Positions 1 to 56,420 of a stretch of 64,000 bases of DNA are shown here, piece after piece. The stretch spans positions 27,273 to 91,272 of the IMG/VR virus record IMGVR_UViG_3300021387_000681. One strand, 5' to 3'. Made by a program: the position numbers and the translations under genes. The notes under the pieces were generated by a model that saw only the letters and a list, made by a program, of their open reading frames with translations, did not search any database and was not told where the DNA came from. Numbering within the stretch: the first letter of the stretch is position 1; each line of letters begins with the position of its first letter. This stretch comes from a virus (taxonomy: Duplodnaviria; Caudoviricetes).

Positions 1-3000
1 GTTAGAGGTATACGAGCCGGAATAATGTTAGGCTCTATGACTAAGGATGGTGTCAATAGACCTATAGCTATGTATTTTGATAGAGGTAATTTAATGTTTA
101 GTCCTGATGCTAAGCAGTCACCAATTAGACAAATGATTGCAGATGAACTTTATTCTATATTGTATAAGAAAGCTGCAAATATAAAAACTGATCCAAATGA
201 AATTTATGAACAATTAAATGCTTTAATAGGTAAGACTGGTTTGGTTTACGGATTACATGTTCATAAGAGCGATGATAGAATATTTATAACAGATATAGAT
301 GGTAATTCTATTTTAAATATATATTCTAGTGCTAATAATGGAACAGTTAAAACTAATCAGATGTTAATTACTTATGAGGATGATAGTGGAAGACATAGTT
401 TTTATTTACAACCTTTTAAAGATCAAAAAGGATTTATTCCAGAAGCTACTAGTGATAAACCTATAGGAGATTATATAAGTAATAGTATAAAATCATTAGT
501 AAATCTTCTCCTTACGGGGGAACACAATGGTGTTAAAGTTAGGGAAGGAGTTAGATATAACTTAAATTATGCTATGCTTAGTAATCAATATTCTCCAAAT
601 ATGTATGTTGAAAGAGGGTTAGATGATAAAGGAATAACATTTAAATTTAAAAATCTTGCTGAAGATGGTAAAGTTAGTACATTAACATATAACAGTTTAC
701 TTGATTATGTTGTAGATAATGAAGCATTTAGTACTAATTTTCAACAACAAGAAGTTGGATTTACCAATGGAACTACAGCTAAGACTGTAATAGACATAAC
801 TGAAATTCCTATAGGAAGTGTAAATGGAAAAGGACTTTATTTAAGACTACCTCAAAATGCTCCAAAACGTACTAAAGCTATAGCTGAAGGAAAACGACAG
901 CCTAAAAGATGGGGTGAAAAGTTATCTGTAGATGGTACTGGAGAAAATAGTTTAAGAGATTTTATGCGTACCCCTTTAGAGGAAGGTGGATTAGGTTTAA
1001 GTGAAACTTCTGTTAATACATTATTTGGAAATGGTACTAGTAAAGTTCCTAGATTAATTCCTGATGAAATAACTATATTAGGTAAAGGTAATGTTAGACA
1101 AATACAAGGAACTACAGGACATTATGATGATAAAACAAAACGAATTTATATATCTGCTCTTGGTTTATCTGAAGGAGACCATACTCAAGGTTGGGATGTT
1201 TTAAGAACAATTCTTCATGAAGGTATTCATCAAAAACTTAGAAGTAGATATGGAGTTAATTATAGAACTAGAATACAAAGAAATTCTGAAGAAATAATAA
1301 ATGTTATTAAACAAGCTCAAGATTTCTTGATTGAAAATTATGATGAAAATAATGTAAATCATCAACATTCAAGATATTTAATAAACATACTTTCAGATGT
1401 AGATAGATATTTTGCTAATTATAAAGAACAAATAGATAAAACTATAAAGGATAGAATGTCTGATGATTATGACAAATATAATACTGAGATAAAAAAACTT
1501 AATAGTGAATTAAATGAAAATAAAATAACTAGAGAAGAATATGATAATGCTGTAGCTAAAGAAAAGGAAAATATAGAAAATAAAAAGAGTAAATTAAAAA
1601 AAGAATATAAGTCTTTATATGATATTATAAATTCTGATGAAGCTACAAAGAAAGCAGTATTAGCTGAAGAAATTATTGTTGAGTTAATGACAGATAAATA
1701 TCTCGCTAATACTCTTAATGATATAGAGTATATAGGTGATATCGATTTAAGATATACAAATAAACGTCAAACTTTATTTCAAAGAATTGTTCATGCTCTT
1801 ATTGATTTCTTTGGTATAAAAATTAAAGATGATAGTATATTAGCTAAAGAACTTGAATTATTATCGAAAGATATAACTGATAAAGGTGAAATTAAAGATA
1901 AGAAAGTAAAAGATACACTAAAGCCTCCAACTAGTGAAGATGGTGTGGAAAAGGGAAATATAACTCCCGAAAAAATAGCTGAAATACCTAATTTATTTAC
2001 TGATGTTAAACAATCAGAAGATTTTGATGAAAGTCATAAGTATATTGTTGATGGTAAAGAAGTAACAACTAGTGTTACTGGAAAACTTAATGGTTCAACT
2101 AGAAATGAAGAACTTGGTCCTGACGGTAAACCTATAGATGGTCCTTCTAAAATAATATCAACTAGTGGCGGTAATTCTGTTGATAAGTTAGCTAGGGAAT
2201 ATTATCGTAAAAATCCATTTGACTATGACAATGGTGAAGGTAGAGATTTCGATGAAGATCCTTTGTTAACAAGAGATAATATAGAATCTACACTTATTAG
2301 TATTAATAATGGAGAAGGAGCATTTGAAGATTTAAGAAGAAAGATTGCTAATATGGTTAATGAAGCTAATGGAGGTACTCCTACAGGATTTAGAATAATT
2401 ACGGATGAAACTCCAATAGCTGCTAGATGGACTAATAAAACTGATCCTACAGATTCTGAAATAGTTGCTGGTACTCCAGATATGATAGTTATAGATAATA
2501 ATGGAAATTATTATATAATTGATTTTAAAACTAAAAGAAATCTTCTTGAAAAAGGCGGACTTGATAATCTAACAAAGAGTGCATATTTTGCTCAAGTTAA
2601 TCATTATAGAATGATGATTGAAAGTAAAAATCCAGCACTTAGAGGAAAGTTTAAAGGATTAAAACTTGCTGTATTTAGTGCTAATCCTTATCCTCTTAAA
2701 GATAAATCGGATAATGATATAAAGTATGAAAGAGGAACAAATAAGGGCCAAGTAATGCTAGAAGGAAGAGATATTAAAGGTGATGACACTTATGGATATT
2801 ATATTGATAGTAATGAAGCATTATTTATAGATGTACCTATAAGTGATGCATCTAAGTACAATATAACATCATATAAAGATGAAGTTATTAAAAAATCAGA
2901 AGTTAAACCTGAGGAACCTAAAGTGGAGGTTAAACCTGAAGAGATTAAGAAAGAAGAAATACCTTCCAAGAAGGATGAAGTGATTGACGAAGAACCTGAT

Positions 3001-3258
3001 ATAGACGATATTGATATAGATAATGTTGATATGAGATTAAGTATAGCAAGACCTAAGATTATTAGCGATGATAAAATAGATATTTCAAATATAGACGCTG
3101 ATAAAGTTGATTTATATAAAAGAAATCCTACTATTAATATAAATGGTATTAGAAGAACATTTAGTATGGAAAATCTAAGTAGTGGATTTCCAAAGGATGT
3201 TAAGCTATTAATAGCTGATGCAGTAAACAGGGGAATATTTAATTCTTACTGTGAGTAA
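1..3258 (+). CDS. Large virion cargo (polyvalent) protein, 5'-truncated; zincin metalloprotease plus PD-(D/E)xK nuclease domain
   Basis: Frame is open from base 1; HExxH (HEGIH, nt 1216-1230) with downstream EE; GTPD..IIDFKT..Q..Y nuclease motif (nt ~2470-2610); lies next to the giant RNAP as in crAss-like phages. Confidence 0.75.
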   Translation, partial: VRGIRAGIMLGSMTKDGVNRPIAMYFDRGNLMFSPDAKQSPIRQMIADELYSILYKKAANIKTDPNEIYEQLNALIGKTGLVYGLHVHKSDDRIFITDIDGNSILNIYSSANNGTVKTNQMLITYEDDSGRHSFYLQPFKDQKGFIPEATSDKPIGDYISNSIKSLVNLLLTGEHNGVKVREGVRYNLNYAMLSNQYSPNMYVERGLDDKGITFKFKNLAEDGKVSTLTYNSLLDYVVDNEAFSTNFQQQEVGFTNGTTAKTVIDITEIPIGSVNGKGLYLRLPQNAPKRTKAIAEGKRQPKRWGEKLSVDGTGENSLRDFMRTPLEEGGLGLSETSVNTLFGNGTSKVPRLIPDEITILGKGNVRQIQGTTGHYDDKTKRIYISALGLSEGDHTQGWDVLRTILHEGIHQKLRSRYGVNYRTRIQRNSEEIINVIKQAQDFLIENYDENNVNHQHSRYLINILSDVDRYFANYKEQIDKTIKDRMSDDYDKYNTEIKKLNSELNENKITREEYDNAVAKEKENIENKKSKLKKEYKSLYDIINSDEATKKAVLAEEIIVELMTDKYLANTLNDIEYIGDIDLRYTNKRQTLFQRIVHALIDFFGIKIKDDSILAKELELLSKDITDKGEIKDKKVKDTLKPPTSEDGVEKGNITPEKIAEIPNLFTDVKQSEDFDESHKYIVDGKEVTTSVTGKLNGSTRNEELGPDGKPIDGPSKIISTSGGNSVDKLAREYYRKNPFDYDNGEGRDFDEDPLLTRDNIESTLISINNGEGAFEDLRRKIANMVNEANGGTPTGFRIITDETPIAARWTNKTDPTDSEIVAGTPDMIVIDNNGNYYIIDFKTKRNLLEKGGLDNLTKSAYFAQVNHYRMMIESKNPALRGKFKGLKLAVFSANPYPLKDKSDNDIKYERGTNKGQVMLEGRDIKGDDTYGYYIDSNEALFIDVPISDASKYNITSYKDEVIKKSEVKPEEPKVEVKPEEIKKEEIPSKKDEVIDEEPDIDDIDIDNVDMRLSIARPKIISDDKIDISNIDADKVDLYKRNPTININGIRRTFSMENLSSGFPKDVKLLIADAVNRGIFNSYCE
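506..522 (-). repeat. Dispersed CCCCGTA motif copy 1 (in CDS)
   Basis: + strand TTCTCCTTACGGGGGAA. Confidence 0.85.
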
Positions 3259-3273
3259 TTAATAAGTAAATAT

Positions 3274-3323
3274 ATTTGAATTATTTCGGAGCTTTTATTA
3301 GCTTCGGAATAATTCAAATTTTT
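3274..3323 (+). terminator. Long stem-loop followed by T-run between the two giant genes
   Basis: 19-bp inverted repeat ATTTGAATTATTTCGGAGC / GCTTCGGAATAATTCAAAT with two G-U wobbles on the + RNA, followed by a T-run. Confidence 0.6.
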
Positions 3324-3370
3324 CCGAAATTAAATTTAATTATATTGTTAAATCTTATAATTAATTTATT

Positions 3371-6300
3371 ATGGCAGATTGTATAACGCAAGGCACTAAT
3401 TATGGTGAAAAAATTGACAATGTTCTAGATGAAATAAGTCAACAAGTAGATGTATTTCATGGCGATGCCGATAAACTAGTTTTAGAAGCTCAACTTACAA
3501 GCGGAGAATTTCTTAAAGAACTTACAAAGTTCGTTAGAAATAATAAAGATGTTGCTGAAATATTTGATAGTAGAAATGTACCTTATAATAATTTTAGAAA
3601 AATAACTATAAGTGATTTAGAGAAAATAATACAAGTTAATCAAGTAAAGAAATTTATAAAAGATTATTATATTGATAGTCATCCATCGGTTAATAATTCT
3701 ACTACTGATGGAATAGAGTTTGATACAGTTGGATTCACTTCTGGAAAAATTAAAAATCTCGCATATAAAAATGTAGCTCAAACTATTCTAAGAACTCATG
3801 TTGAAAATATGAGTAGACCTATAGAAAGTCGCAGAGATAAAGATGGTGTCATGGCTGAGACTGTACAAAGACTTACTGATGAATTTTTTGATAATATTGT
3901 ACAAATAAAATTAAATAATAAAGGAAAAAAACTAGATAGAATACCTACTTTAGTTAGTGCATATAAACAAGCTACTAGTTCATTTAATTCTCTAGCATCA
4001 GCTATAAAAAAGAATATAGATGAAATTAATAGACTTAGAGAATTAGGTAAAAACTTTCCAACTAAATTTAAAGAATTTACTCAAGAACAATTATCTGAAT
4101 TTAATAAATATAAAAATAAAATAGCAGAACTTGAAAGAACTAATATTGATTTAAAAAATCAATTAACTCAAAAATATAATACTAGATTTATATTAGGCTA
4201 TTCAATTATACAAAATGTTGCTGATAGTGGAAATAGTGTAGATATAAGAGCTAAGAACTGGGCTAATATGATTTATAAGTTAAGGTCTGATTATTATGGT
4301 TTTATAAGAAGAAGTCTAAGTATTGGAGGATATCAAGAATTATTGAAAGAATATAGTGATACTTTAGATGAAACTGATTATAAAGAATTTCAAGACAATA
4401 ATATAATTATAGATGAAGAATATTTTAAAATAGATGATTCTAGAGATACAACTACAAAAAATTGGAATGATGCTATTCCTAGAGATTTTAATAGTTTAGT
4501 TAAAACTGAAAATGAATTATATCTTAGAGCTATTCCTAAATTAAATAGCGTTATAGAAATTAAAGATAATAATAGATTAATTGATTATGATACAAATAAT
4601 GATTTAGGTATAAATGAATTCATGGATTACGATGTTGTTAAAAATAATATTATATCCAATGTTGATATTTCTAGTAGAGAAGCATTTTTGGATTCATTAA
4701 TGAAACGTGCTACATCTGTTCCTGAACTTGCAGGTTTATCAAAAATATATTATGATTGTATAGATGATCCTATTCTTCTAAATAGATTAATGAAGCAATT
4801 TGAATATCATTTGTATGAAAAAACTAGAGTTAGTACATTAAATGGAAACTCAATTAATCGTTCTAATAATAGGTCTAATAATTTAAATACTTTATATTGG
4901 GATTTAACCAATCAAGTTAGATTTAGTAAATATCATGCTTATGATTCTTATAATGTTAATAGATTAGCTCCATTAGTTAGACTAAAAATAATAAATGGTA
5001 AATTAAATGATAGTAAGTTATTTGATAAATCTAATATAAAAGAAGGAAATACTGTATTTGACGATGGAGTGCAATTAATAAAAGATATGATGCTTGCAGT
5101 ATTTAATAATTTTGATACTAGAATTATAGATAATTATTTAAATGAAGTAAAAACTGAGGCTGAAAAAGGTGAAAGACTTGGTAAATTAGCTACATCTGTT
5201 AACAGATTATATGATGAAATAAAAGATTGGGCTAATATATATGCGGATGAAGCTGCAAAAGTTAAAGCTAGTCAACAATTAAAAGTTAGTGGTCAAGATT
5301 TGGCCAATAAATCATTATATGAAATATTTACTGATGAAGGTGAAACAGAAACTGAATTATATGAAATAGACCAAGATAGAATAAATCAAGCTAATCAAAG
5401 AATAGAAAGTACTGTTTTATCCATATGTCAAATGATTTCAGAATATAGTATTAGTAAAAATGAATATACTAGTATTGGGGTTGAAGGTAATCGTTCATCT
5501 GATATTATTAAAAATTCTTGGATTAGTAGATTTAATGATACTATGCAATATGGAACTAAAGAAGATCCAAATAAAGGTGTTCATGATTTAATAAATACAT
5601 TTAGAAAAGGAGATCCTGATTCTAATCAATATGCATATAATCCTTTATTATATGGTTCATTTTTATATAATGATTCTGGAACTGTAAATAGAGATAGTAT
5701 AGTTCCTGGAATGTTTAATAAAAATACTAATAAACTCCATAAAAATGTAAGAGATTTCTTAGTTCCAAGATTATTTGATGGTGTAGATACAGGAAGTAAA
5801 TATAGAAATGTTACTTATAATAGTATGTCTGGTAATGATTATCTTATTACTAAATTTATGAACTTCCATTATCCAATGTATAGTTTGGAAGGAGGTATAC
5901 ATCATCAACTAGTTACTGGAGAAAGATTAGCTAATTATTTCCTTAGAGTTCCATCTGATGCTACTCATAATTATACAGTTCAATATTGCAGACTTTCAGA
6001 TATTCAAATAGAATCTGCTTTAACATCTCATTTGAAACAAGAACTATGTAATTTTATAGCAAATTTAACAAATGTTTTTGAGTTTAATAAAACTAAAGGT
6101 GTTTATGAAATTACAACTGATAAAAATAAAATAAACAGATTATTTAAATTTGCTCATCTAAGTAAAGATGGCAATATTGTAGAAAATAAACAACTTGCTG
6201 GTAATTTCTTTAATTTTATTAAATTTTTTAATACTGGAGGTAAAGACTATAATGATATTATAAAAAGGACACTTTCCCTCTACGGGGATGGAACAATAGA

Positions 6301-9300
6301 CTCACTTATTAAAGTTAGTAGAGGTAAACTATATTTAGATCCAAATAGTCGTTTATTTAAATTATATATAAATGAAATAAATAATGGTAATGATGGAGTA
6401 AAAAGATTTCAACTTAAAGATAGTGTAGAACTTACTAAACAGCTACACGAAATAGTTAAAGAATGGAAAAAAGATTATTTAGCAGAACAAAAGGAACTAC
6501 TTAAAGATAAATTAGATAGGCTTAGAGAAACTGATGGATATTATAGTGATGAAAGTAAAACTAAAGAAAATGGAAAAGAAAATAAAGTTGTTGGTGATTA
6601 TACTGAAAAAGATATAGATGAGTTCTTATTAAATGATTTAAATATGTTTATGACAATGGATGAATTCTTTGATGGAAATGGTGGTTATTATAAAAATTCT
6701 CAAGATTATTTAAAGAGAGCTAAACAAGTTCAAGCTGGTGGTGAATCATATGCTGTTGGTGATAAATTTGGTAGTGATTTTACAGGATTGCAAAATATAA
6801 AAGCTATAGGAACTCAAGATAATATTAAAATTGTTACAAAAAATGGAGTTCAATTAAATATAGGAGCTACTAATAAACCAATAGAAATAAGAAATGGATT
6901 TAGAGGGATTATAATAAAAAATACTAATAAACCTGCTGATAGATATCAATCATATGAAGATGAGATGTTTAAAATATTTAAAAATGAATTGCTTAAATTA
7001 AATAAAGTTATATCTAATCCACTGACTGAAGAACAAATAAATGATAAAGCTAGAATTAGAGCACAAAGAAGTGTATCTGCATTTAAGGAAGATACTACTG
7101 TAAATGATGCTCAATCATATATAACTCTTGATGAATTCATTAGACGCACTTGGATTGATGGAACATTTAATGATTATGCTCCATTATTTGAACGTCTTAA
7201 AGATATAGAAAAGGCATATGCTAAAGTTAAAAGTCTTAGAGAAAATGGTGATGCTGAACAACTTAAACAAGCTAGTGATGAATTAGAAAAATTAAGAAAT
7301 AATATCGATGTAGCAGCTTTAGGAGCTAGAATACAAGTTCAAAAGAATTTTTATTTTGACCATCAATTTGATGAAGTACTTAACAATTATTATAGTAGAC
7401 AAATAAAAAATGCTGAATTTGTTTTAATAAAAGGTTTACTTGGTGAAGGTAGTGATTTAGATAAACTATATGATTTAATGATTAAAAATGGGATTGACCA
7501 AGTTAATACAGCTGAGACTAGTAAAGCGTCTAATAGAACTCCATTAGTATATTGGGATAATGAAGGTAAAGTTGATGAGGCATTTGAAAAGAATTTAACT
7601 AGTGATTCTAAATATATTGAAAATTATTACTATAAATATCTTTATAAACAACAAGATAATCCTCAACATATGGAAAATGCTAGAAATAAATTTGGATTGC
7701 AAATTCAAGTTAAAATTCCTGATAATATTAGATTAGATAATGAATATGTTAGAGGTAAATTACAAAATTATTTTGATGCATATAGAACTAAAATAGATAA
7801 AACTCATAATGAAATGCTTAATGATATGGGTTATAAATATAAAGATGGTAAAATTGTAAATATATCTAATGAAAGTGAAGAACTTGATCCTTATGATTTT
7901 TATAAATTAGCATTAGAAGAAGCTACTCGATTAGGAGTTAATAGCCAATTTATGGAATATCTTGAACCAGATCCTATAACTAGATATCCTAAAATGCCTA
8001 ATTATATGAATCTTGTTTCGACTAAAATTGAAAATGTTATTCAAGCTTTATATAATAGCAGAATTACTCGTCAAAAAATGCCTGGTTGGCATGCTGTTCA
8101 AGTTACTAGTATGGGTACTGATAAAAAACTTCAATATCATCCTGAAGGATGGTATAACGCTAAGGAACATAAATATATTGATAATGATGAATATAATAAA
8201 TTAGAAGATAAAACTGGTTGGGAAAAATCAAATATGCCAATAATTGATATTCGCATACCTAGATGGGATAAATCAATACCTAGAGATATGCCTGAAGAAG
8301 AACTTATTAATAAACTTAAAGAAGCTGGACTTGACCAGCAAATTATAAATCGTATTCCAACTGAAGGTAAACAATCAATAGCTGTTGCTAGGGTTGTAGG
8401 ATTTATAGATGATATTTATGGTTCAACAATTCTTCTTCCTGATGAATGGGTTACTCAGACAGGTGCTGACTTTGATACAGATAGTGTTTATAGTATGTAT
8501 CATCATATGAGATATGATAAGAAAAAGAAAATGTTTATTAAAGAAAAATTCTTTAATCCAAATGATTATAAAGGAGAAGATAAAGAAAAAGCTTTTAGGA
8601 AACAATATACTAAATTTGTAAGAGAAGCTGTTAGAGAAAAAATTGAAAGAAAAAGAATAACTGCTGATGACCATGATGCTAAATGGAAAGAAGCATATGA
8701 TGAATTTAATAATACTCAAGAGAAAAATGAACTACAATTACAATTTGATAGTATTGAGTTTGCTAAATCTGGAAAAGTTGAAGACAGTGATACTGGAGAA
8801 TTAAATATTAAAAAGTCAGGAGTTTATTATAGATTACCTAGAGAAGCTCAAGACGTATTACGTTCTGTAAAACATGATAAATCTAAATATAATGGAGACA
8901 GAAAAGCATCGTATAAAGATAGACTTAAAAAAGAAATAGATGCTCTTATTGATTATACAAAAACTACAGGTAAATGGACTGCTTCTATTCAGAAATATAT
9001 AAATTATTGTAATGATTTACTAGATATATTTGCTAAACAAGAAGAATTGCTTTCTGATAGATTTGAACTTGAGGATGTTAAAGAACGATATAAAGAATTA
9101 ATGAAAGAAGTTGCTGGAGAAGTATCTGAAGAAAATTTTAAAGCAATACAAGCTAAAGCAGCTGAATTAGGAATTGTAGATTTTGAAACTTTTAAGACTC
9201 TCCCCGTAGAGGAAATGAATACTAATAAGGCACTTGATAATAGAGTTATTGATAGTCTTATGGAAATACTTAAAGACCCTAGTTCTCGTGAGGAAAATTA

Positions 9301-12300
9301 TGCTACTAGTAACTTCATTGATATTAGTGAAGCTATGAGAATTATGAGTGATACTATGGGTATGTCTAGTCAGTTGGCTACTATGTATGATACTAATTCA
9401 CAAATTAGAAATTTTGTTAATGCTATGAGTGGTACTAAATTAAAAGGTATGTCTGTTAATTTAGATACATTTTTATCAAAAACTTCTATGGGTAGAGCAA
9501 GAATAGGTGGAGATTTTTATAAAAAGATTAGAATAAAATATGATTTAACTAGAAAAGATGATAAAGGAAATCCAATATATGATAAAGATGCTATAAAATA
9601 TTCTTTTGGTTCTGAAAATGTAGAAGATTATGGAGATTATATAATAGTAACTCATCATAATATGGGTTGGTCTAATGATAATAAAAACGTAGCTGGAAAA
9701 ATTATAAGTATGTATAGTTCTGAAACTACTGCTCATACACTTGATGCAATGAAAGTAGGTAGTGCATATAATGTAAATGAATTTACATTTAAAGCATATA
9801 AACTTATGCCTATGATTGGTTCAGATTATTATACAACTATGGCATTTATTTATCAACCTGCAATTAGTAGACTAAATGTAGAACATGATAAATTAAATTC
9901 TGCTTATAATAATTCAAGTGGCAACGAAATTAGAAATGCCACTAAAAATATAATAAAAGAAATATTAACAGCTTTAGATGATAAAGAAGGATTAAAATTA
10001 CATGGATATTTTGATTTAATTAAATATATAAGTACTAACGAAAAAGTTAAACCTATTTTTGAGCAATTATTAGGAACAACTATAGACGGTGGCAAAAATA
10101 CATATCAAAATGTTGATAAAATATTTGATATATCTTTAATGATTGAAAGACTTGATCATGTGAAAGATTTTAATAATGAATTTAATTACAAGTTTAATGT
10201 AGATGATGGGAGAGATATAAATGACAAGCTTAGAGATGCTTGTATAGATTTAATAATGCTTTCTCAATATGATGTGTTATCGAATTTAGGAAATCATATA
10301 AATAAAATAGCCCAAGTTTCTAAACCTGAAAAAATAGGTGCTGCTCAAACTATTTATGAAACGAAAAGAATTATAAGGAGAATAAATGATATAACTGGAA
10401 GAACTGAACTTTTAAGAGATTCTGAAGGATATGTTGATAGTAGAAGTGAAGATGAAATAAAAGAAGATAAGGCTACTGCTAAATGTTTATTGGTTGATAT
10501 AAAAGATTCTGAAGGTAAATCTACTCCAGTTGGATTTTTAAATGCTTTATTTCCAACAGAATCGGATAATAAAACTATAATACCGGAAAATTCATTTTAT
10601 CCATTTATTGCACAAATGTATAAAAGTTCAACTATTGCTAGTGTTGAAATAAATTCTAGATTATTTAGATTAGAAGATGAAAAGTATTATAGAATAATTG
10701 CAGATGTTGAACAGAAAATTGGTAGAAGATTAAATCCAGATCAAGCTAAAGAATTTAAAAAATATTTAATGGGATATGTTTATACTAGAGTTCCTGCATT
10801 AGCTTTACCATTAGATATTGATGAAAATGGAAAAATTAGTAGTAAATATGGAATGGATGATTTAGATATTAGAGATGAAGAAATTAGAAGAGTAAATGGA
10901 TTTGCTACTAGGAGTGGGTCTCTCAGAATAAAAAATGTAAATAATCCTACTGAAGCTGAAATAGAAGAATATAAGAAATTAACTCCTGCTCAAAAAGTTT
11001 TATTTGTTCAAAGAAGTTTCAGAGATGGTAAAGGTATATTTGGTCTAATATCTGCTGAGTCTGCAAGACCTCAAGATGTTGTTCTTGGAAAAGGTTCTGG
11101 ACAAAGAATATCTTTTAATGATGAAGCTGTAGATATAGAAACTATGTTTGAGGAATTTACAAAGTCATTTAGTAATAAAAATCCTCTTATAAGACTTGCT
11201 GCTATAGATTTAGTTAAATATGCGTTACTTGTAGAAAATCATAATTTTGGAAAAAATAAAGTAAGTAAATTTATTATAAATGATGCGTTATATAATGGAA
11301 CAAATAATTATGGTTTAAATGTAGTTGAAGAATCTAGTAGAATACTTGATAATGAAATAGGTAAAGATTTAATATCGGATGAATTTATAAGAAGATTTAT
11401 TCGTTCTCATTCAGAAATAGCTCCTACGGTTAGAATATTCTATAAAACTAAAAATGAAATAGGAGAATCTGATGTTACTGCTGAACAAAAAGGATTAATA
11501 AAATGTTTAAAACATGCTAACGGAATAATAATAATTCCTAAAGTAGAATCTAAAGAAGGTGTAAAATTAAATGATGTTGATAATAATATACAAGCATTTA
11601 GAGAAAAAATTGAAGAATTTGGTGATAAATATATAAACTTATCATATAGAAGATATTCTGAAGATGCTATGGGCTCTTCAATAGAAAGAAGAGCAAATGT
11701 ATTATATGAAGTAAGAATGTTAGACGATGGAACTTATTTTCTGATTCCTCATACTAGACTTGATAGAAATGAACAACAAAAATATAGCTATATTAAAGAT
11801 AATAATAATAGAGAAACATATACTGATACAGATCCTGCTACAGGAATTACAAAAAATACTGCTAATAAATTCTTTATAGAAGAATATTATGAATCTATTT
11901 TTGATGAATTTAAAAGAGATATAAATCCTGTAGATGATGATGGTCAATTTGTTTCATCGGATTCTAAAACAGTATTTAGTTTAATAAAGAAACATATAGA
12001 CAATGTTAATAAAGAAATTGCTAAGAAAGTAGAAGCCCCTAGACAAATTAAAAGTGAAAATGATGCTGTAAATGATAGAAATTTATTAGATAAATTATCT
12101 ACAAATCCTGATATTAACAGGCCATATTTAAAACCTCAAGTTGATAAGTTTATAGAAGCAATAAATGGAGGAAATCCTAGAATTGCTAAATTTAGAGAAA
12201 ATAAATATGGAATAAATGGTTCTGAAAATATTCAAAATAAAGTATATGTGTATAATGTATCTCCTGATATTAGAAATATGTTCCCTGTAGGTAAATGGGT

Positions 12301-15300
12301 TATACAAAGAATTAAAGATAGAGATGGTAATAAAATGTATGTAAAAATAAAAAAATTAGAACATAGTAATATTAAGTTAGGAAGTGACAAAATAACTAAT
12401 CCTTCATTGATGGTTGCTAAAGACCAATATGATAGAGAACTTAAAACATTCTCATATGCAAAACATATGTATATAGTTAAAGTTGCTACTAAAGATGAAA
12501 TTAGAGAATTAGATAAAAAGAATGAAGTTGATGACAATACAACTCCAATTATGATGTCTGTTGCGAGAAGAATTGAAGGAAGAAATTATGATGCTACAGC
12601 TACAGATGTATTTGATAAATTTATGCCTGCTATATTAAATAAAATATCAACTGATGCAAAAAGAGATGATATTAGAGCAACTGAATTTATGGACTTTGTT
12701 CGTCAATATGGAATAAATACTAGATTAATGAGTAGTGTTGCTAAAGATGCAAAAGCTGTATATAGAAATCTAGATTACTATACTAGACAAATGGTTAATT
12801 ATTATAAAGAACAACTAGATAAATTTGAATTGTCAAACGGAGAAATATACAGTGTAGATGATAAAGAATTATATAGAAAACTTGGAGAAGCTGATATATT
12901 AGACCAACAAAGTGATTATAATAGATTAATAAAACTTTTATTAGATGTTAAAAATATGGGAGAATATTATTCTATGATTGGTCACTTAGAAGGTCAAGAT
13001 GAAATTAATAAATATGTTGATAGTATGTTAGCAAATGTTAAGTCTTTAGCTGCTCATAAAATATATACTGCATTTGACCATTTATTTAATATTTATTTTG
13101 CTCAATTTAGTACTGACCCGCTAATAAAAGAAGGTATTATAAAACTTCGTGAACAATTTGGAGATTTAAATGCTTTAGATGCATCATTGACTGATGTTAC
13201 TCATATACGTTCAAAAGAAGTTCAAGTTGTTACTAAGATAATTAATGATACTTTGGCTAGAGTTGAACGAATAACTGCTCCTAGAGCCCAAGCTGAATTT
13301 GAAAGTAAATATGATAATATTGTTAAAAAAGCATCTACTCCTATTGATTTTACAAAAATAATAAATAAGGATGGATATTTTGTCAAAGACTACACTGAAG
13401 ATTTCATAAAAGAAAAAAGAAGAATAGATAATGAATTAGATGCTTATGTTGATGAAAATAAAAGAGACAGTGAAGGTTATTATAGAAAATGGATAGAAAA
13501 AGAAAGGTTTTATATAAATAATGTAAATCGCGAAGTTGTATCTCAATACTATAAAGATAAAGTTGATAACTTAGAAAGAGCATTAAATGAAGGAGGAAAT
13601 ATATTTATAGAATATAAGAGATTATCTAGACAGTTATATGATACAGTATATGATTATAATACTGATGAAGAAAGTAAAAGAAGAGCAAATATACAAGCTC
13701 AAATAAATGAATTACTTGAGGAATATAATGAAGAAGCCGGAGCTAAAAAATCTGATAGTATAATACTTAAAATTCGTGCTGTACAAGAATTTAGAAAACG
13801 TGAGATGGAAATTAATAAAAAGTATTATGATTATCAAGCATATGATGGATGGAAAAGTGATGTTGAACATTATACTAATATAATAAAAACTTATGATGAA
13901 ACTCATACATTACAACCTCATGATATTAAAATGAAAAATGCTGAATATGCTGAAGCTTGGAATTGGATACATAGCAATACTTATAGAACTATTTCTCAAG
14001 AAACTAAGGCTACTATAAATAATTTGCGTAGAAGTGTATATGGAGATGCAGATTATAAAGGTAGTGTTGCAAGAAGATTAGCTAAAGAAAGAGAAGGAGT
14101 TCTTGGTGAAAATAACAGAATGGATGCTAGAAACTTTACTGATGATGATATAAGAAAAATTAAACAAGACTTTGTAGCTAAACATTCTAGATATAGTACA
14201 GTTGATGGAACGAATAAATCGCTATTAAAATATGTTCCAGAGCAACCAATTCTAACCGATGCTTTTTGGAATGAGTTTAATAAGTTATATAATCCAAATA
14301 TATCTAGAGCTGATAAACATAGAACTCATCTAATTATAAATAAAATAATAGAGCCATATTTTGATAAGAATACAGGTAAATTAGATACCATTAGTTTAGT
14401 AAAATATTTGGAAAATCATTTAGATGTATATAATGAACTCAAAAACGCTTATGAATCATTGAGAGCTAGAAAAGGTGGAGGTAAACAAAGTAGAGCGTTT
14501 ATTGAACATTTTAAGAATACTATGGAAATGGCTTATAATAAACAGGCTTATGATGAAGAAAAAGCTATATTAGATGATGGATATAATAATATTTCCTCTA
14601 CGGGGAAAAAGTCAATTAGCAAAAAAGCATATAATATTTGGATGGATTTATTTACAGTTCTTGATAAAGATAATTCATTAGTTCCTAGATTTGAAGTATT
14701 TGGATATTTTAAAATTAAAGATGAAAAATACATAAACAAAGCAAAAACTGAAGCTAGAGATAAACTTAGAAGAAATGTTAGATACACTCCTAATGAATAC
14801 TATTACGATGCTAGAGCAAAAGCTATTGCTGAAGGTAAATATGATCAATGGTTTGAATTAAATCATGTATATAATACAGATACTGGTAATTGGGAGCCTC
14901 TTAGAATATGGACACAGATGGAACTAAGAGAAGATAATGAATTTGGTGATGAATATCAATATGTTCCTACTTTTGATAATTCTAGAAAATTAGTTAAAGA
15001 TGAATTTAAAAATAAAAATTGGAAGAAAGGACAACTCAGATATAATTCAACTACAGGAAATTATAATAACGGAATACAATTAACAGCTGATGAACAAAGA
15101 ATGAAAGAATTTCTTCAAGAAACTGTTAAAAGTGCGGCTTATAATATTGCTACAAGGAGAGCTGCTGAATCAGGTATGGCACCAAGAATGATTGCTGCTG
15201 AACCATGGAATACTGTTAAGATATTTAAAGAGATTTTCAATACTGTAGGATTAACAATAGACAAAAGTTGGAAACTTCCAAATGATAATAGAGGAATGGT

Positions 15301-18051: not shown

Positions 18052-18078
18052 TTTGTCAAACGTTTGATAAATTAATAA

Positions 18079-18093
18079 TTCCACTACGGGGAA
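18079..18093 (-). repeat. Dispersed CCCCGTA motif copy 5 (intergenic)
   Basis: TTCCACTACGGGGAA. Confidence 0.9.
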
Positions 18094-18109
18094 AACATTA
18101 ATTAAGCTC

Positions 18110-18123
18110 TCCCCGTAGATGGA
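18110..18123 (+). repeat. Dispersed CCCCGTA motif copy 6 (intergenic, inverted relative to copy 5)
   Basis: TCCCCGTAGATGGA. Confidence 0.9.
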
Positions 18124-19332: not shown

Positions 19333-20331
19333 TTAAACTGTTAATAAATAATTACCTACTCTTTCAATCTTGTTAGCCTTATCCCCGTAGAGAAGACTAT
19401 CAAATCGTTTCTCACCAGATACATTGTCAACATTTGAATAATATCCAGTAACAGCATTATATACACCCCAGGCTGTACCTCTAATATCATCTTGAGCTAT
19501 ACCACCATGATAGTAGCTATTCATATCAGTTATAATATTAACTTTCTTTGTGCTAATATTAGCATCTTGCATAGCATTATAATCTCTATGTACTATTTGT
19601 TTAATAGTATGTCCTGTAGTAAATAAATCATCAATTTCTTTATCTGATAAAATAAGTCTAGCAAAAGCCTCAGAAGCTTGATCATCAGTCATTTTCTTTT
19701 TAGCAAGTTGTTCCCAAGTGTTTTTCAAAGCAGATATTTTTACTTTACTAATTCCGAGAATATCACTTGCTAAATCTAAATTACTATGAACACTCTGAGT
19801 ATGCCTAAAACTTATATATTTATCAGCACCTTTAATTGCAGCATTAAGACAATTAGTACAAAATATTCTAACTGGAGTTAGCATAATTTTAAGTCCTGTA
19901 CTGCCATCATGACTATTCATAATAACAAGATAATTATCAACAGGGTCTCCATCAACAAGTATTGTATCTGGTAATTTAGCAGCAACAAATACTCTTTCTC
20001 CATATCCTAAACTTCCAGCTGTATACCATATAGCTTTATCTTTACCTATAGCATTATCAAAGAAATTAAAAGCATCAATATTTTGAACTGGGGTGTATCT
20101 TCCTTTTACTATACCTAATGGTTGTCCAATATCAGTACGATATGTAGCATAAGCATTAGGTACTTGTTTATATTTTTGAATTAAATCATCTTTAGTGGTC
20201 ATTTGGCCATATACTTCACACTTTGCGACTGACCAATTCAATTTAGCTTTTTCCATTACTTGAGCTGCTGTAGTACAATCTCCAACTGCAACAGTTCCTG
20301 GAAACGTAAATGGTAATCCTTTTTGTGTCAT
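19333..20331 (-). CDS. DUF932 domain protein
   Basis: LGIVKGRYTPVQN, NSHDGS, TPVRIFCTN, RHT and GTAWGVYNAVT motifs. Confidence 0.9.
   Translation of the reverse strand: MTQKGLPFTFPGTVAVGDCTTAAQVMEKAKLNWSVAKCEVYGQMTTKDDLIQKYKQVPNAYATYRTDIGQPLGIVKGRYTPVQNIDAFNFFDNAIGKDKAIWYTAGSLGYGERVFVAAKLPDTILVDGDPVDNYLVIMNSHDGSTGLKIMLTPVRIFCTNCLNAAIKGADKYISFRHTQSVHSNLDLASDILGISKVKISALKNTWEQLAKKKMTDDQASEAFARLILSDKEIDDLFTTGHTIKQIVHRDYNAMQDANISTKKVNIITDMNSYYHGGIAQDDIRGTAWGVYNAVTGYYSNVDNVSGEKRFDSLLYGDKANKIERVGNYLLTV
19382..19395 (+). repeat. Dispersed CCCCGTA motif copy 7 (in CDS)
   Basis: TCCCCGTAGAGAAG. Confidence 0.85.
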
Positions 20332-32516: not shown

Positions 32517-32547
32517 CAAATATACATTGTTTAGTCCAAACTACAAA
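32517..32547 (-). promoter_or_regulatory. Bacteroidota primary-sigma promoter
   Basis: TTTG-N19-TATATTTG on the minus strand, upstream of 32492. Confidence 0.7.
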
Positions 32548-39472: not shown

Positions 39473-39486
39473 TCCCCGTAGAGGGA
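39473..39486 (+). repeat. Dispersed CCCCGTA motif copy 11 (intergenic)
   Basis: TCCCCGTAGAGGGA. Confidence 0.9.
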
Positions 39487-46375: not shown

Positions 46376-46419
46376 TAACGCGCGTATGCGTATATACATT
46401 ATTAACGCACATATGCGTA
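46376..46419. repeat. Two 17-bp imperfect-palindrome direct repeats in AT-rich DNA
   Basis: TAACGCGCGTATGCGTA (46376) and TAACGCACATATGCGTA (46403). Confidence 0.7.
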
Positions 46420-46472
46420 CATTATATAATATATAATATATAATAAGGTGTATTAAAATTAATATTTTTTAA

Positions 46473-46504
46473 CTTGTATTTGAACTATAAATGCACTATA
46501 TTTG
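46473..46504 (+). promoter_or_regulatory. Bacteroidota primary-sigma promoter for the + strand block
   Basis: CTTG-N20-TATATTTG. Confidence 0.65.
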
Positions 46505-46526
46505 CACTGTAAATTATAAACAAGTT

Positions 46527-46955
46527 ATGGATATTAGAGTAGATGAAGCTATTAAGAATGGTGTTTATTTAGATAAAGAAACTAATACACTAGTTGATAA
46601 TACAGAAAGTATTAATTTAGTTATTAATAGTAATAATTATCTTAAAACTATTAAAGTTACAGATATTATTGCTACTCTATTAGAACTTAATGATAGTGAA
46701 GCTGCTGTTTATACTAGTTTAATTGAAGCTAGACTTGCAAATAAAAATATGCTAAATGTTGCAGAAAGTGTAGCTAGAATTGCTAAAGTTTATGATAAAT
46801 CTGAAAGATCTATTTACAAAGCTATTAAAAGTCTTAATGATAAAAGAATTATTACTTATAGAGGTGTTAACGCCATTCAATTAAATCGAGGTTATGATTT
46901 CATTAGAAGTGTAATGAATGAACCTAAGTTTATTATAATACGTTTAACAAATTAA
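46527..46955 (+). CDS. RepL-like winged-helix DNA-binding protein
   Basis: IAKVYDKSERSIYKAIKSLNDKRII HTH; start moved to MDIRV because the promoter overlaps the upstream ATG region. Confidence 0.65.
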   Translation: MDIRVDEAIKNGVYLDKETNTLVDNTESINLVINSNNYLKTIKVTDIIATLLELNDSEAAVYTSLIEARLANKNMLNVAESVARIAKVYDKSERSIYKAIKSLNDKRIITYRGVNAIQLNRGYDFIRSVMNEPKFIIIRLTN

Positions 46956-46959
46956 TATT

Positions 46960-47496
46960 ATGATTACTCTTACAAGTAAAACAAAAGATTTTGCAATAAA
47001 TTTGCCAACTAATTTTGAAGAAATTACTCCAGAATATTTAACTAATATAACAAGCAATATTAAACTTGCAGAACATTATAGTATAGTGGCTATATGTAAA
47101 CATGTAGATATTGCTCAATTTATATTAGCTAATACTGGAAATAAAAATGCTAATACTCTAGTGAATTATACTGCAATATTAGCTAAAGGAAGTAAAGATT
47201 CTCCTATAGGTTCTAAATTACTAATTGATAAACAAGGACTTGATTATTCACAAACTATATATATTAATACAGCTATTTCTGATAATTTTGTATTTAATTA
47301 TATAGAAAGTGATCCTGATATGAGAAAAGCTCTCATTACTAATTTAAAGAGTTGTAAAGTTTATCTATTAAGTTTTAAACTAGTTCCTAATTCATCTATA
47401 CATGGATATGTTATTGGGGATTTAGATATTAATAAAGATAACTTTTATAGAACAGCAGCTGACAAATCCATGAATATTCCCTTTACGGGGAAATGA
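46960..47496 (+). CDS. Conserved crAss hypothetical protein
   Basis: NLPT..EIT.EYL...T..I.LA..YSIVA...FKLVP...IHG. Confidence 0.7.
   Translation: MITLTSKTKDFAINLPTNFEEITPEYLTNITSNIKLAEHYSIVAICKHVDIAQFILANTGNKNANTLVNYTAILAKGSKDSPIGSKLLIDKQGLDYSQTIYINTAISDNFVFNYIESDPDMRKALITNLKSCKVYLLSFKLVPNSSIHGYVIGDLDINKDNFYRTAADKSMNIPFTGK
47477..47492 (-). repeat. Dispersed CCCCGTA motif copy 12 (3' end of CDS)
   Basis: TTCCCTTTACGGGGAA. Confidence 0.9.
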
Positions 47497-47512
47497 CGAA
47501 TGATATACAATT

Positions 47513-47998
47513 ATGAAAGTTAGTCCAGAATTAGTTATTAAAGAAATATCTGATATTCTATTGGATATTGATGAAGATGATAGAGCGTTATGTGATGATA
47601 TAATAACTAATTTAGAAAAAACTGCTGTAGATTATATTAGAAAGAATAAAGTAATAAAAATTCCTTATATAGGAAATTATGCTTTTAATAGATTATATTT
47701 AAACTTAAAAGAACATCATAAGGAACTTAAAGCTTATAGAAAAACAGTTGATATAGGTACTTATAAAGATACTGTTAGAAATTTAGTTAAAGATGAAAAA
47801 GAAAAATTAAATAGAGAAATTAAAACTGAACTTCATCTTAATAAATTCAGAACTAAAAATAAGAAAAGATATTATGAACTTGCTACTAAACATGGAGTTA
47901 CTTATGCTAAAGTTTGGTTAATTTTTCATTATAAAGCAACTCCTGTTCCTTTTGATGAAGAAGTACAACGTATGTTTGAAGTATATGAAGAATGTTAG
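47513..47998 (+). CDS. IHF/HU-like DNA-binding protein
   Basis: Helices then K.IKIPYIGNY (HU-like strand); typical crAss position. Confidence 0.5.
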   Translation: MKVSPELVIKEISDILLDIDEDDRALCDDIITNLEKTAVDYIRKNKVIKIPYIGNYAFNRLYLNLKEHHKELKAYRKTVDIGTYKDTVRNLVKDEKEKLNREIKTELHLNKFRTKNKKRYYELATKHGVTYAKVWLIFHYKATPVPFDEEVQRMFEVYEEC

Positions 47999-48602
47999 TT
48001 TAAATATAGATAAAATGCTTACGATTGATGAAACTGGGATGCCTCAAGCTCCTAATATTCGTCAATTACAAGATAAAGATTTACTTCAGCTGTATCAAAG
48101 AGATTTAAGTAAAGATAAACAAAAATTTATTAAAGAATGTGGAATTATATATTATCTTGGAGATCCTAAAAGTCCTGCTAAACAACAAGGACTTAATGAT
48201 AGAGAAAGTCTTAAACTTGCTATAGAAAACTACGATTTACCAAAAGATTATGAACCTGATGCTCTAATAAAACGATTGATTGATAAGTATTATGTTAGTA
48301 ATATAACTGAAGCTGGAATGGCACTTGACGCTTTAAGGAAATCTATTCATTTAGTTTCTATAGGTGCTAATAAAATAAATGATTTATTAAATCAGAAATT
48401 ACAAGGCGCCATAAGTGTTGAAGATGCTCAACAAATACTTAATTTAATTAGAAGTGTTCAAGACTATGTTAAACTAATTCCGGATTTAACTAAATCAATT
48501 AATACAGCTTACGATAATCTTCGTAATGAGGAGGAAGAACAACTTGCACGAGGTGGTAGACAAATATTGTCTAGTATGAATGCAGATGAAGATATAATAT
48601 AA
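47985..48602 (+). CDS. Conserved crAss protein (possible terminase small subunit)
   Basis: Helical, LARGG C-terminus, upstream of packaging genes. Confidence 0.45.
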   Translation: MKNVSLNIDKMLTIDETGMPQAPNIRQLQDKDLLQLYQRDLSKDKQKFIKECGIIYYLGDPKSPAKQQGLNDRESLKLAIENYDLPKDYEPDALIKRLIDKYYVSNITEAGMALDALRKSIHLVSIGANKINDLLNQKLQGAISVEDAQQILNLIRSVQDYVKLIPDLTKSINTAYDNLRNEEEEQLARGGRQILSSMNADEDII

Positions 48603-49597
48603 TGTTACATTTAAACGATACAAGATATAACGAAGTTAAACTTATATTTGAAGAAGAAGGACATAAATATCATGATAGTTTAGGTAATGAGTATCTTAGT
48701 ACCACTACTTTACTTCATGAATATGTTCCTAAATTTCAACGTGATTATTGGCTTAAAAAGAAAGCTAAAGAATTACATATAAGTGTAAAACAATTAGAAA
48801 AGCAATGGCAAGATATAACTGATGAAGCTTGTATTAGAGGAACTAAAACTCATAACGCATTAGAGGATGCCATTAAAATTAATAGTTTATTTAAGGATGC
48901 TGTTAGATTTCTTAAAAGAGATAGTGGAGAAATGATAACTATAGCTGATATTCCTGACATAAATCTAAATATAAAAGAATTAGATGTTGAAGCGTTTAAA
49001 GAAATTACTGAAAATAAATATGATAAAATATATAAAGTATTTGATTATTATAAAAGTGCTGGATATAAGATATATTCTGAGATTGGTGCTTTTTTAATTG
49101 ATTATCTTGTATCTGGAACAATTGATGTTCTATGTATTCGAGACGATCAGTTTGTTATAGGTGATTGGAAAACGAACAGAGGAGGGCTTAAATTTGAAAG
49201 TGGATATTATAAAAAAGATAAATCTACAAAACCATCACAATTAACTGATGTTTGGGTTAGTAAAGATGAAAGATTACTAGCACCTTTAAATCATTTACAA
49301 AATTGTAATGGAAATATATATAATCTACAATTAAGTTTATATGCTTATTATGTTGAATATGTATTAGGAATCCCATGTGCTGGTCTTTGGCTTTGTCATA
49401 TCGACCACGATTTTATTCTTAATGAATATGGGCAACCAAAAAGATTTCCTGATGGTTTATATCGTATAAAAGATAATCCAATAGAGAAAGTTACTCTACA
49501 TCGTATGCCTTATTTAAAGAAAGAAGTTAATAGTATATTGGCAGATAGAAAACGTATTATTTCTGCTAATATTAACAAACAAAAAAGTTTATTTTGA
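48602..49597 (+). CDS. PD-(D/E)xK exonuclease
   Basis: HKY, STTT, RGTKTH, SGTIDV, GDWKTN, YNLQLSLYA. Confidence 0.88.
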   Translation: MLHLNDTRYNEVKLIFEEEGHKYHDSLGNEYLSTTTLLHEYVPKFQRDYWLKKKAKELHISVKQLEKQWQDITDEACIRGTKTHNALEDAIKINSLFKDAVRFLKRDSGEMITIADIPDINLNIKELDVEAFKEITENKYDKIYKVFDYYKSAGYKIYSEIGAFLIDYLVSGTIDVLCIRDDQFVIGDWKTNRGGLKFESGYYKKDKSTKPSQLTDVWVSKDERLLAPLNHLQNCNGNIYNLQLSLYAYYVEYVLGIPCAGLWLCHIDHDFILNEYGQPKRFPDGLYRIKDNPIEKVTLHRMPYLKKEVNSILADRKRIISANINKQKSLF

Positions 49598-49980
49598 AGA
49601 AGCTATTATTATCAATATTGTTATTATTGGTGTGTATGAATACGTTAATAACTAATGGTTGCACACCTAAAACTGTTACAAATGATACAGTTATTGAAGT
49701 TGTTGATTCTTCCCCCGTAGAGGGAATGATTACGTATATATTAGTTAAAGACTCTATAGATAGTATTAAACTAGATAGTATTATCAATAAAATAGCTGTT
49801 GATTCTGTTGCATATAATAATGAAATAAATAGATTAAAGAAATCTAATGATAGTCTTAATATTCAGTTATTTAATGCTAATTATAAATTAAATAAAATAG
49901 CTGAATATAATAAAATAGCTGCTAAAGGTAATAATATAAAATATTTGCGTGGTTGGATTAATCGTACGTTATCACAATGA
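49594..49980 (+). CDS. Putative lipoprotein or secreted coiled-coil protein
   Basis: TTG start overlapping the upstream TGA; hydrophobic signal, ITNGC. Confidence 0.6.
   Translation: MKKLLLSILLLLVCMNTLITNGCTPKTVTNDTVIEVVDSSPVEGMITYILVKDSIDSIKLDSIINKIAVDSVAYNNEINRLKKSNDSLNIQLFNANYKLNKIAEYNKIAAKGNNIKYLRGWINRTLSQ
49710..49726 (+). repeat. Dispersed CCCCGTA motif copy 13 (in CDS)
   Basis: TTCCCCCGTAGAGGGAA. Confidence 0.9.
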
Positions 49981-51102: not shown

Positions 51103-51364
51103 ATGGATGAAACTATTGATGGTTGTAGGAATGATAATTGTATTAATTTGTATGATTAATATGATGAAAAATATTTTTCCTCAGCCGTTAACTAAGGGTA
51201 CTATTGTTGATACAACAAAGTTGATTACTATCAATGATAGTATCCTTTTTTATAAGAATGAGGTTATTATTTATCAAGATAGTTTACATAATGAAATTAA
51301 AAAAGCTGATTATATTAGTAACGATAGTGCTATTAAATTGTTTAAGCGTCTCATCAAAGAATAG
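51080..51364 (+). CDS. Putative i-spanin-like membrane protein
   Basis: N-terminal TM helix; overlaps the next gene. Confidence 0.5.
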   Translation: MQQAQLDKWMKLLMVVGMIIVLICMINMMKNIFPQPLTKGTIVDTTKLITINDSILFYKNEVIIYQDSLHNEIKKADYISNDSAIKLFKRLIKE

Positions 51365-51665
51365 TTTTATTGAAAGTTCTGATACTACTATAACTATTTC
51401 TATTGATGAAGTTAGAGCAATTAATAAAAAACTTATCGAGCGTAAATATTTATTGGATATAGTTAGCAAGAAAGATAGCATTATTAAATATCAAGATAAT
51501 TATATAAATGAAGAAAAAATAATAGTTAGAGAACTTCAAGACAAATTAACTACTAGTAATAACATCAGTAAACAAATGAACGAATCACTGAAGAAACATA
51601 AAGTTGTAAGTGTTTGTCTTGGAAGTGCTCTAGCTGTCTCTTTATTATTATTTTTTATAAAGTAA
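51291..51665 (+). CDS. Putative spanin-like protein (signal/lipobox, coiled coil, C-terminal TM)
   Basis: MKLKKLIILVTIVLLNC; C-terminal VCLGSALAVSLLLFF. Confidence 0.5.
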   Translation: MKLKKLIILVTIVLLNCLSVSSKNSFIESSDTTITISIDEVRAINKKLIERKYLLDIVSKKDSIIKYQDNYINEEKIIVRELQDKLTTSNNISKQMNESLKKHKVVSVCLGSALAVSLLLFFIK

Positions 51666-53902: not shown

Positions 53903-53908
53903 ATTAAT

Positions 53909-56320: not shown

Positions 56321-56353
56321 AGATTTCTTTAGTAGTTAATAAATTGGTTTATT

Positions 56354-56392
56354 ATTCCCATTTTAGTTGTGAAACTTGAATGGGAATTTTTA
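56354..56392 (+). terminator. Intrinsic terminator
   Basis: ATTCCCATT..GTGA..AATGGGAAT-TTTTT. Confidence 0.8.
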
Positions 56393-56402
56393 TTAGTATA
56401 AA

Positions 56403-56420
56403 TTCTCCACTACGGGGGAA
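56403..56420 (-). repeat. Dispersed CCCCGTA motif copy 14 (intergenic)
   Basis: TTCTCCACTACGGGGGAA. Confidence 0.9.

Follow-up and report, generated by a model that had tools for sequence, protein, structure and literature searches.

Why should a GC-rich word be written again and again, mostly inside genes, into a phage genome of 28% GC? The question is raised by a 64,000-nucleotide (nt) stretch of DNA (hereafter the window) that comprises bases 27273-91272 of the 91,272-bp record IMGVR_UViG_3300021387_000681, the genome of a rumen crAss-like phage (the study genome, G000) which is rated 97% complete and is contained in public sequencing runs of bovine and sheep gut origin. An earlier note, made from the letters of the window, had reported 14 copies of the core YCCCCGTAR and proposed that they form a genome-wide system of DNA sites. 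All 14 copies are found within 0-2 nt of the places given there, and shuffled sequences and the conservation of the copies in relatives agree with the proposal. The copies are a cis-acting DNA signal under selection, asymmetric in sequence and with even spacing on either strand.

The window contains 14 matches to CCCCGTA and 14 to YCCCCGTAR, compared to 0.38 and 0.11 copies, respectively, expected from dinucleotide shuffles and a maximum of 2 in the shuffles, in line with the earlier estimate of less than one chance copy of CCCCGTA. In the whole 91,272-bp genome, CCCCGTA (n = 17) is the most over-represented 7-mer, every CCCGTA word is a member of the motif set, and scanning with up to four mismatches, including the long gap on the plus strand described below, yielded no further copies. 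The enrichment persists under the codon-preserving shuffle that the earlier note had proposed as a check: when synonymous codons were shuffled within each open reading frame (ORF), 0.235 copies remained in the ORFs on average and never more than 2, compared to 13 observed. Ten of the copies in the window lie in ORFs, as previously counted, and four are intergenic. Codon counts also bear out the statement that the copies are read in three registers, namely x-T-G (ACG GGG), L-Y-G (TAC GGG) and x-P-V-E/K (CCC GTA), and employ rare codons, given that the codons at the copies make up 3% (ACG), 4% (GGG) and 2% each (CCC, CTC and TCC) of their synonymous families. The conserved span in the study genome is about 18 nt.

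Relatives were identified through the major capsid protein (30 related genomes), and a closer comparison included 21 relatives and the prototype crAssphage (p-crAssphage, BK010471), with site positions compared via protein alignments across 22 genomes. In about 20 of the 22 genomes, several copies occupy the same residue with unchanged orientation. The copy at 26858-26871 (minus strand), which is read in sense at amino acids (aa) 83-84 of the ATP-dependent DNA ligase (PVEG), and the copy at 28700-28713 (plus), antisense to aa 274-276 of the primase, are both common in place and orientation to 21 of the 22; the copy at 33426-33439 (minus, sense), at aa 163 of the 460-aa ORF 32541-33923, which is assigned by gene order to the position of p-crAssphage gp17 (SNF2-type ATPase), is common to 20 of the 22. 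Another conserved site of this kind is antisense at about aa 95 of the ORF at genome positions 9925-10821, a tail tubular protein by position, judging from p-crAssphage gp50. The ligase site retains CCC GTA GAG GGA in about 20 genomes although CCC accounts for 2% of proline codons, and reads CCT GTA in the lineages with a T-spelling. In the ligase of one relative (G024, L221), the word is intact but lies one base out of frame, so that LPVEG becomes LPRRG (PVEG to PRRG). Orthologous conservation extends across the 22 genomes down to approximately 45-60% protein identity, always with fixed orientation, and no insertion-sized indels were detected at motif sites in the alignments of relatives.

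Taken together, the orthologous positions, the retention of the word across a frame shift and the lack of such indels exclude both a mobile element and selection at the protein level; as the earlier note had argued from the reading registers, selection acts on the DNA and not on the protein. Repeats of the repetitive extragenic palindrome (REP) or miniature inverted-repeat transposable element (MITE) type were accordingly rejected, the sites being orthologous and in frame in about 20 of 22 genomes. A more general passive or selfish origin, under which the copies would be footprints of miniature mobile elements or an artefact of mutation, composition or assembly, could draw on the inverted pairs that are present in spacers; it is contradicted by the even spacing and fixed orientation of orthologous copies over 22 genomes and by the recovery of the word in independent assemblies from many studies, and is barely credible. 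Some copies retained in 14-18 of the 22 genomes have been lost from the study genome, at about aa 398 of PolB (window 33892-36261; this copy is kept in 15-18 genomes), at aa 40-48 of ORF 51234-51665 and at aa 12-31 of ORF 59344-60459.

The signal extends well beyond the study genome. Among the 30 related genomes, CCCCGTA is present in 2-40 copies, compared to 0-2 copies of the reversed control word. In all 21 relatives included in the closer comparison and in p-crAssphage, the top enriched word is a lineage-specific spelling of the signal: CCCCGTA, CCCTGTA, GCCCGTA, CTGCCYGTA or CCCCGTG. Genomes with few copies have CCC(C)TGTAGAG (G003, G014 and G018) or CTGCCYGTA (G008) as their top words, and GCCCGTAGAGG is the top word in G019 and, in part, in G001 and G002. 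The loose pattern CC[CT]GTA+RRRR has 16-45 matches in each of the 21 genomes, roughly balanced between plus and minus strands, against 0-4 for the control; p-crAssphage carries 31 copies of gaCYCCCCGT[A/G]GAGGATGGA. The conserved span is 22-26 nt in G009, G025 and p-crAssphage. The consensus is asymmetric: a T/C run is followed by GTA and then by purines. Its 5' C/Y run differs between spellings and its 3' flank is purine-rich throughout, with GT as the sole part that is invariant across all spellings. Thus, the signal is confirmed as a property of the Intestiviridae crAss-like phages, the prototype human-gut crAssphage included, and its lineage-specific spelling could serve as a practical marker for the classification of crAss genomes. 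Neither the motif nor a function for it was found in the literature on crAss phage biology, in agreement with the earlier note, whose author knew of none. The same genomes also differ in the frequency of GATC, which has 0-6 copies in about 90 kb in G004, G005, G008, G009, G010, G012, G013, G016, G019, G020, G023, G024, G025 and p-crAssphage, 84 in the study genome and 268 in G011; this unevenness looks like lineage-specific restriction avoidance.

Nucleotide alignments show that orthologous sites carry the spelling of their own lineage and that the spellings substitute for one another; the spelling changes in concert within a lineage. Loss of CpG was considered as a cause of the change from CG to TG and was rejected, the observed to expected ratio of CpG being no lower in the T-spelling genomes. 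Lineage spellings at orthologous sites imply a reader that co-evolves with the sites. Covariation was assessed with partial Mantel tests, which are liberal, of spelling distance against protein distance, with the mean distance over 26 core proteins as the control. The values are 0.50 for TerL, 0.48 for PolB, 0.42 for the ligase, 0.33 for the SSB-like protein and 0.23 each for the helicase and the primase, with 0.535 (P = 0.001) for the C-terminal third of TerL (residues 501-762, which we take to be the place of the nuclease domain), 0.37 for primase residues 101-250, a weak 0.18 (P ~0.1) for the exonuclease and negative values for the proteins of the capsid module. This pattern, in which phylogeny is a confounder and no single protein emerges as the reader, suggests that the spelling follows the DNA-handling genes over the capsid module.

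What kind of reader is involved can be approached through the geometry of the sites. In five genomes, 73% of the copies lie inside ORFs, 30 in sense and 54 in antisense, which matches the 2:3 ratio that is expected because TAG or TAA within the word blocks one sense frame; hence, orientation is unrelated to transcription. The remaining 27% are intergenic, compared to about 7% non-coding DNA in these genomes. These figures weigh on the possibility that the word is a promoter-like start for an RNA polymerase (RNAP), be it the virion RNAP acting on single-stranded DNA or another enzyme, that would give short or non-coding RNAs, e.g., primers or R-loops. Promoters of the T7 group are 23 nt long, with TATA followed by GGGAGA, and the crAss word resembles them in its size of 18-25 nt, its variable upstream part and its shared GTA and purine run; moreover, an ATG follows some copies in G009 at a distance of 10-20 nt, and gp66, the crAss-like virion RNAP, accepts single-stranded DNA as a template but does not transcribe double-stranded DNA (bioRxiv 10.1101/2020.03.07.982082). 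However, orientation does not follow the genes, most copies lie in ORFs and about two thirds of these are antisense, and no T7-like single-subunit RNAP was detected among the ORFs scanned. Furthermore, in phi14:2 no common motif precedes the early transcripts, and the middle and late genes use the host RNAP (bioRxiv 10.1101/2020.03.07.982082). A promoter-like role is therefore very improbable.

On the minus strand of the study genome, the gaps between the 11 copies have a coefficient of variation (CV) of 0.354 (P = 0.001); evenness on individual strands is likewise found in G001, G002, G009 and G025, the two strands of p-crAssphage have gap CVs of 0.31 and 0.43 (P <= 0.0014), and 29 of 44 strands are evenly spaced at P < 0.05 with the loose pattern, which is noisy. 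When both strands are pooled, the spacing is not even. Given that evenness holds per strand and not for the pool, orientation matters, unlike in the palindromic sites parS, matS, NBS (Noc-binding sites) and SBS (SlmA-binding sites). Every few kb of either strand seem to need one correctly oriented copy, and the word appears to be read in a strand-specific manner, most simply on single-stranded DNA.

Two statements of the earlier note on the arrangement of copies stand in part. Strict alternation of strands holds from 26.8 kb onward but is not significant over the study genome (10 switches among 17 sites, P = 0.35), although alternation exceeds chance in G001, G002 and G009. The gap at 39.5-47.5 kb is the largest within the window, but the largest in the whole genome, 10.1 kb, lies elsewhere, and p-crAssphage has sites in the equivalent early region. 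The plus-strand copies of the study genome are confined to genome positions 36-77 kb. The variant CCTGTARRRR has 8 matches in this genome against 1.7 expected, four of them within the plus-strand gap (genome 8404, 17761, 17806 and 25293, all plus), upstream of the window and roughly spaced as the lattice would have them. These four may be decayed or weak sites, or purine-rich coding background; as hidden plus-strand copies they were rejected and treated as background, given that their flanks are missing and they lie mostly on purine-rich sense strands.

The per-strand evenness also counts against the model of the earlier note, namely a double-strand site for an architectural, partition or packaging protein of the parS, matS or NBS kind that would bind as a dimer to a pseudo-dyad. 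Copies are indeed dispersed over genes and spacers, TerL is the top covarying protein, and p-crAssphage has been proposed to live as a phage-plasmid (PMC10983915). The pseudo-dyad is present in the study genome's spelling, but it folds weakly and is not kept in other spellings, and the conserved part of the motif is asymmetric, so the dimeric dyad-binding site is not upheld. Nor do the suggested readers fare well. The RepL-like helix-turn-helix (HTH) candidate, an HTH_36 protein at 46491-46955, is poorly conserved, with a detectable orthologue in 5 of 21 genomes, all motif-bearing; the call of the protein at 47513-47998 as IHF-like is unsupported, there being no match to a Pfam, PHROG or NCBIfam family; and neither this ORF nor ORF 46960-47496 stands out in the covariation test. 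An architectural site is, on this evidence, quite improbable.

Copies also occur as inverted pairs. Back-to-back pairs less than 300 bp apart number 31 against 15 expected, about a twofold excess, and one of these is found in the window, in an intergenic gap at 18079-18123 (18079-18092 minus, 18110-18123 plus). As single-stranded DNA, this pair forms a 13-bp hairpin (-11.6 kcal/mol, z -4.8). Single copies show no significant folding (-1 to -3.8 kcal/mol, z -2.4 to +0.4, in varying registers), and a hairpin promoter of the N4 type or a nick hairpin of the HUH type was rejected on the ground that single copies form no stable hairpin. In two close strains, represented by contigs of two public runs (X2 and X3), the spacer within the pair (window 18078-18103) is swapped for a longer unrelated stretch between flanks that align.

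Such pairs are awkward for a second strand-specific explanation, programmed single-strand interruptions, in which a phage nuclease, possibly the nuclease domain of TerL during packaging, would nick one strand at each copy and leave regularly spaced nicks on alternating strands of virion DNA, comparable to those of T5 or of tf/LUZ24-like phages. Consistent with this scenario, the motif is conserved, asymmetric, strand-specific, present in many copies and common to relatives, all genomes keep an ATP-dependent ligase, and the covariation with the ligase and with the C-terminal third of TerL given above is compatible with it. Yet inverted pairs only 26-130 bp apart, such as that at 18079-18123, could lead to double-strand breaks if nicked, the ORFs scanned yielded no dedicated nickase, and the covariation is the one confounded with phylogeny; furthermore, the nicks of T5 are confined to one strand and are not evenly spaced. 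Programmed nicking thus appears unlikely. The true ends of 66 fragmentary IMG/VR contigs show no enrichment near sites, one of them lying within 60 bp of a site compared to about 3% expected, which is uninformative as to nicks.

Whether the reader belongs to the phage or to the host was addressed with 401 Bacteroidota-type genomes (the phylum of G031), in which CCCCGTARAGG occurs 0-23 times per genome, at the level of the reversed-word control. This is a phylum-level sample in which 16 of 31 genomes have SusD genes; the true host is perhaps unsampled, and a scan with dUTPase gave no Bacteroidales genome. Given that the word is not enriched in the sampled genomes, a phage-encoded reader is likelier than the host factor that was among the candidates of the earlier note, and we infer that the reader is encoded by the phage and co-evolves with the sites.

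The same observation cuts both ways for a phage-private Chi-like signal, in which a helicase-nuclease or recombination machine of the phage would read the word on the strand it tracks and switch from degradation to recombination, or stop, so that any break in phage DNA would be followed, within a few kb, by sparing or repair, whereas host DNA, which lacks the word, would have no such protection. The logic of coverage suits copies that are evenly spaced on both strands and placed without regard to gene context, absence of enrichment in the sampled host phylum fits the privacy of the signal, and the phage encodes an SF1 helicase, a PD-(D/E)XK exonuclease, a gene in the RecT position and Gp157 (Gam-like by the annotation of p-crAssphage). 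Known Chi sites, however, have 5-8 nt, are read by the host RecBCD or AddAB and are over-represented in the host genome, as opposed to a word of 18-25 nt that is not; no RecBCD- or AddAB-like enzyme is encoded, and the exonuclease covaries weakly. This scenario is, accordingly, rather unlikely.

The explanation that we tentatively favor, as possible rather than probable and by analogy with known primases, is that the phage replisome starts preferentially at the word, on single-stranded DNA. The candidate reader is the product of ORF 28354-29535 (minus; PHROG 12622, E 3.8e-82), which has a conserved Cys/His N-terminus and a DNDRTG motif. Its AlphaFold (AF2) model (predicted local distance difference test, pLDDT, 81.5) has Foldseek matches to 2au3 (E 2.7e-7), 1nui, 3b39 and 8dvf, the structural matches comprising Aquifex primase, T7 gp4 primase, DnaG cores and T4 gp61. 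These motifs and matches identify it as a stand-alone primase of the DnaG/T7 gp4 type with zinc-binding and TOPRIM domains. The rest of the replication module consists of PolB, SF1 helicase, ATP-dependent ligase, ThyX, dNMP kinase, dUTPase, DUF932 and Gp157, along with SNF2-, RecT- and SSB-like proteins assigned by comparison with the annotation of p-crAssphage. The primase would start an RNA primer at the word, or a primosome would load there; whichever strand turns single-stranded would then get a guaranteed start every 4-10 kb in a genome of 28% GC. Short primers would otherwise be unstable in such AT-rich DNA, where a G-rich primer, pppACGGGG, would be useful. In the template 5'-CCCC-GT-A/G-3', the C run would represent the primer-coding bases, GT the invariant bases and A/G the cryptic 3' base; sites of the T7-type primase are 5'-GGGTC-3', with the core 5'-GTC-3'.

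With low confidence, the invariant GT, the balance of strands in most genomes, the even spacing on each strand and the encoded primase speak for a replisome start site. Several points weigh against it. Known primases read about 3 nt, and a conserved span of 18-25 nt with a purine-only 3' flank is not accounted for by priming; Okazaki fragments of 4-10 kb, the spacing of the sites, would be long; concerted changes of spelling in the primer-coding C run would need extra specificity; and the plus strand of the study genome is devoid of canonical copies over 50 kb. In addition, covariation is not specific to the primase (0.23 for the whole protein) and may only mirror the vertical descent of TerL and PolB. 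The broader claim, that genomes of the crAssphage family have a built-in lattice of strand-initiation points in which an 18-25 nt signal co-evolving with the replisome would set the starts of synthesis or breaks every 4-10 kb on each strand, is more doubtful still. If true, a lattice of this kind would be an undescribed organisation of replication in a double-stranded DNA virus.

Of the remaining copies of the window, four lie in genes for virion proteins or RNAP: CCCCCGTAAGGAGA at 507-520 (minus), a weak spelling antisense in a 2848-aa virion gene; TCCCCGTAGAGGGA at 6275-6288 (minus), antisense in the 4729-aa RNAP gene and with an orthologous site in 10 genomes (aa 970); 9201-9214 (plus), sense in the RNAP gene (LPVEE), where the aligned place in G001 and G002 is CCCCGTG; and 14593-14606 (minus), antisense in the RNAP gene. 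The copy at 19382-19395 (plus), the 3' half of which is weak (GAGAAG), is antisense to DUF932, close to the 3' end of that gene, and 7 relatives have no copy at the aligned place. Next come 39473-39486 (plus), intergenic; 47478-47491 (minus), antisense in ORF 46960-47496 and 6 nt ahead of its stop; 49712-49725 (plus), sense in ORF 49594-49980 (SPVEG) and common to 5 relatives; and 56405-56418 (minus), intergenic between the portal gene and the next gene, with the 3' half GTGGAG. Among neighboring genes, ORF 47952-48602 (216 aa) is present in 21 of 21 relatives at about 60% identity and is without a family; among the named clusters of a protein atlas, small terminase subunits come nearest, though weakly (score 0.75). 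The look-up of ORF 30642-31445 in the same kind of atlas gave nothing. A palindrome, CCGGATCCGG, occurs twice in genome bases 1-27272, outside the window, where essentially none is expected.

A comparable phenomenon may exist outside the Intestiviridae. ΦcrAss001 (MH675552, bases 1-100000), a member of the Steigviridae with a PolA/DnaB/DnaG replication module, lacks the CCCCGTA word. Its top enriched word is CTCCAGAAG, with 27 copies over both strands, 13 in sense and 13 in antisense in ORFs, compared to 2.4 and 1.8 expected from codon-preserving shuffles; its z is 23.8, where the best words of 12 shuffled genomes reach 8-12.8, and its spacing on each strand is weakly even (P = 0.02-0.04). Thus, other families of Crassvirales may carry analogous, unrelated words, and the phenomenon may be wider than one family. 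The most abundant virus of the human gut belongs to the Intestiviridae. A word that deeply diverged genomes keep at fixed codons, although it costs them rare codons and constrains the choice of amino acids, would mark an essential strand-specific step. The signal can be tested directly, given that cultured relatives exist (crAss002 and B. cellulosilyticus phages are among the GenBank matches), and CTCCAGAAG of ΦcrAss001 offers a second, well-studied model.

Each of the known systems to which the crAss word can be compared shares part of its features. The T7-group promoters have a similar length and combine, likewise, a lineage-variable upstream block with a shared block of TA and a purine run, whereas the crAss copies do not precede genes or share their orientation, and the ORFs scanned include no single-subunit RNAP. 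The dimer sites parS, matS, NBS and SBS differ in that the crAss consensus is asymmetric and its evenness holds per strand only. Chi and the DNA uptake sequences (DUS) and uptake signal sequences (USS) are, like the crAss word, over-represented oriented words that are selected as DNA through coding sequence, and inverted pairs between genes are found as in DUS. Compared to Chi, the crAss word is much longer and is not enriched in the sampled host-phylum genomes, so that its reader, unlike that of Chi, would be phage-encoded; in contrast to the bearers of DUS and USS, the phage has no uptake process. The nick motifs of T5, phiKMV-like and tf/LUZ24-like phages are, like the crAss word, asymmetric, conserved and present in many copies in genes and spacers of virulent phages, with a strand-specific meaning; the crAss sites, known here from sequence alone, differ in being placed on both strands, balanced and even, with close inverted pairs. 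Finally, the sites of DnaG/T7 gp4-type primases are strand-specific and combine 5' primer-coding bases, an invariant dinucleotide GT and a variable cryptic base at the 3' side, an arrangement that the crAss word would share, and the crAss phage encodes a primase of the same fold; unlike the known primase sites, which have 3-5 nt and are frequent and unevenly spaced, the crAss word spans 18-25 nt, is present in 17-45 copies per genome and is spelled by lineage.

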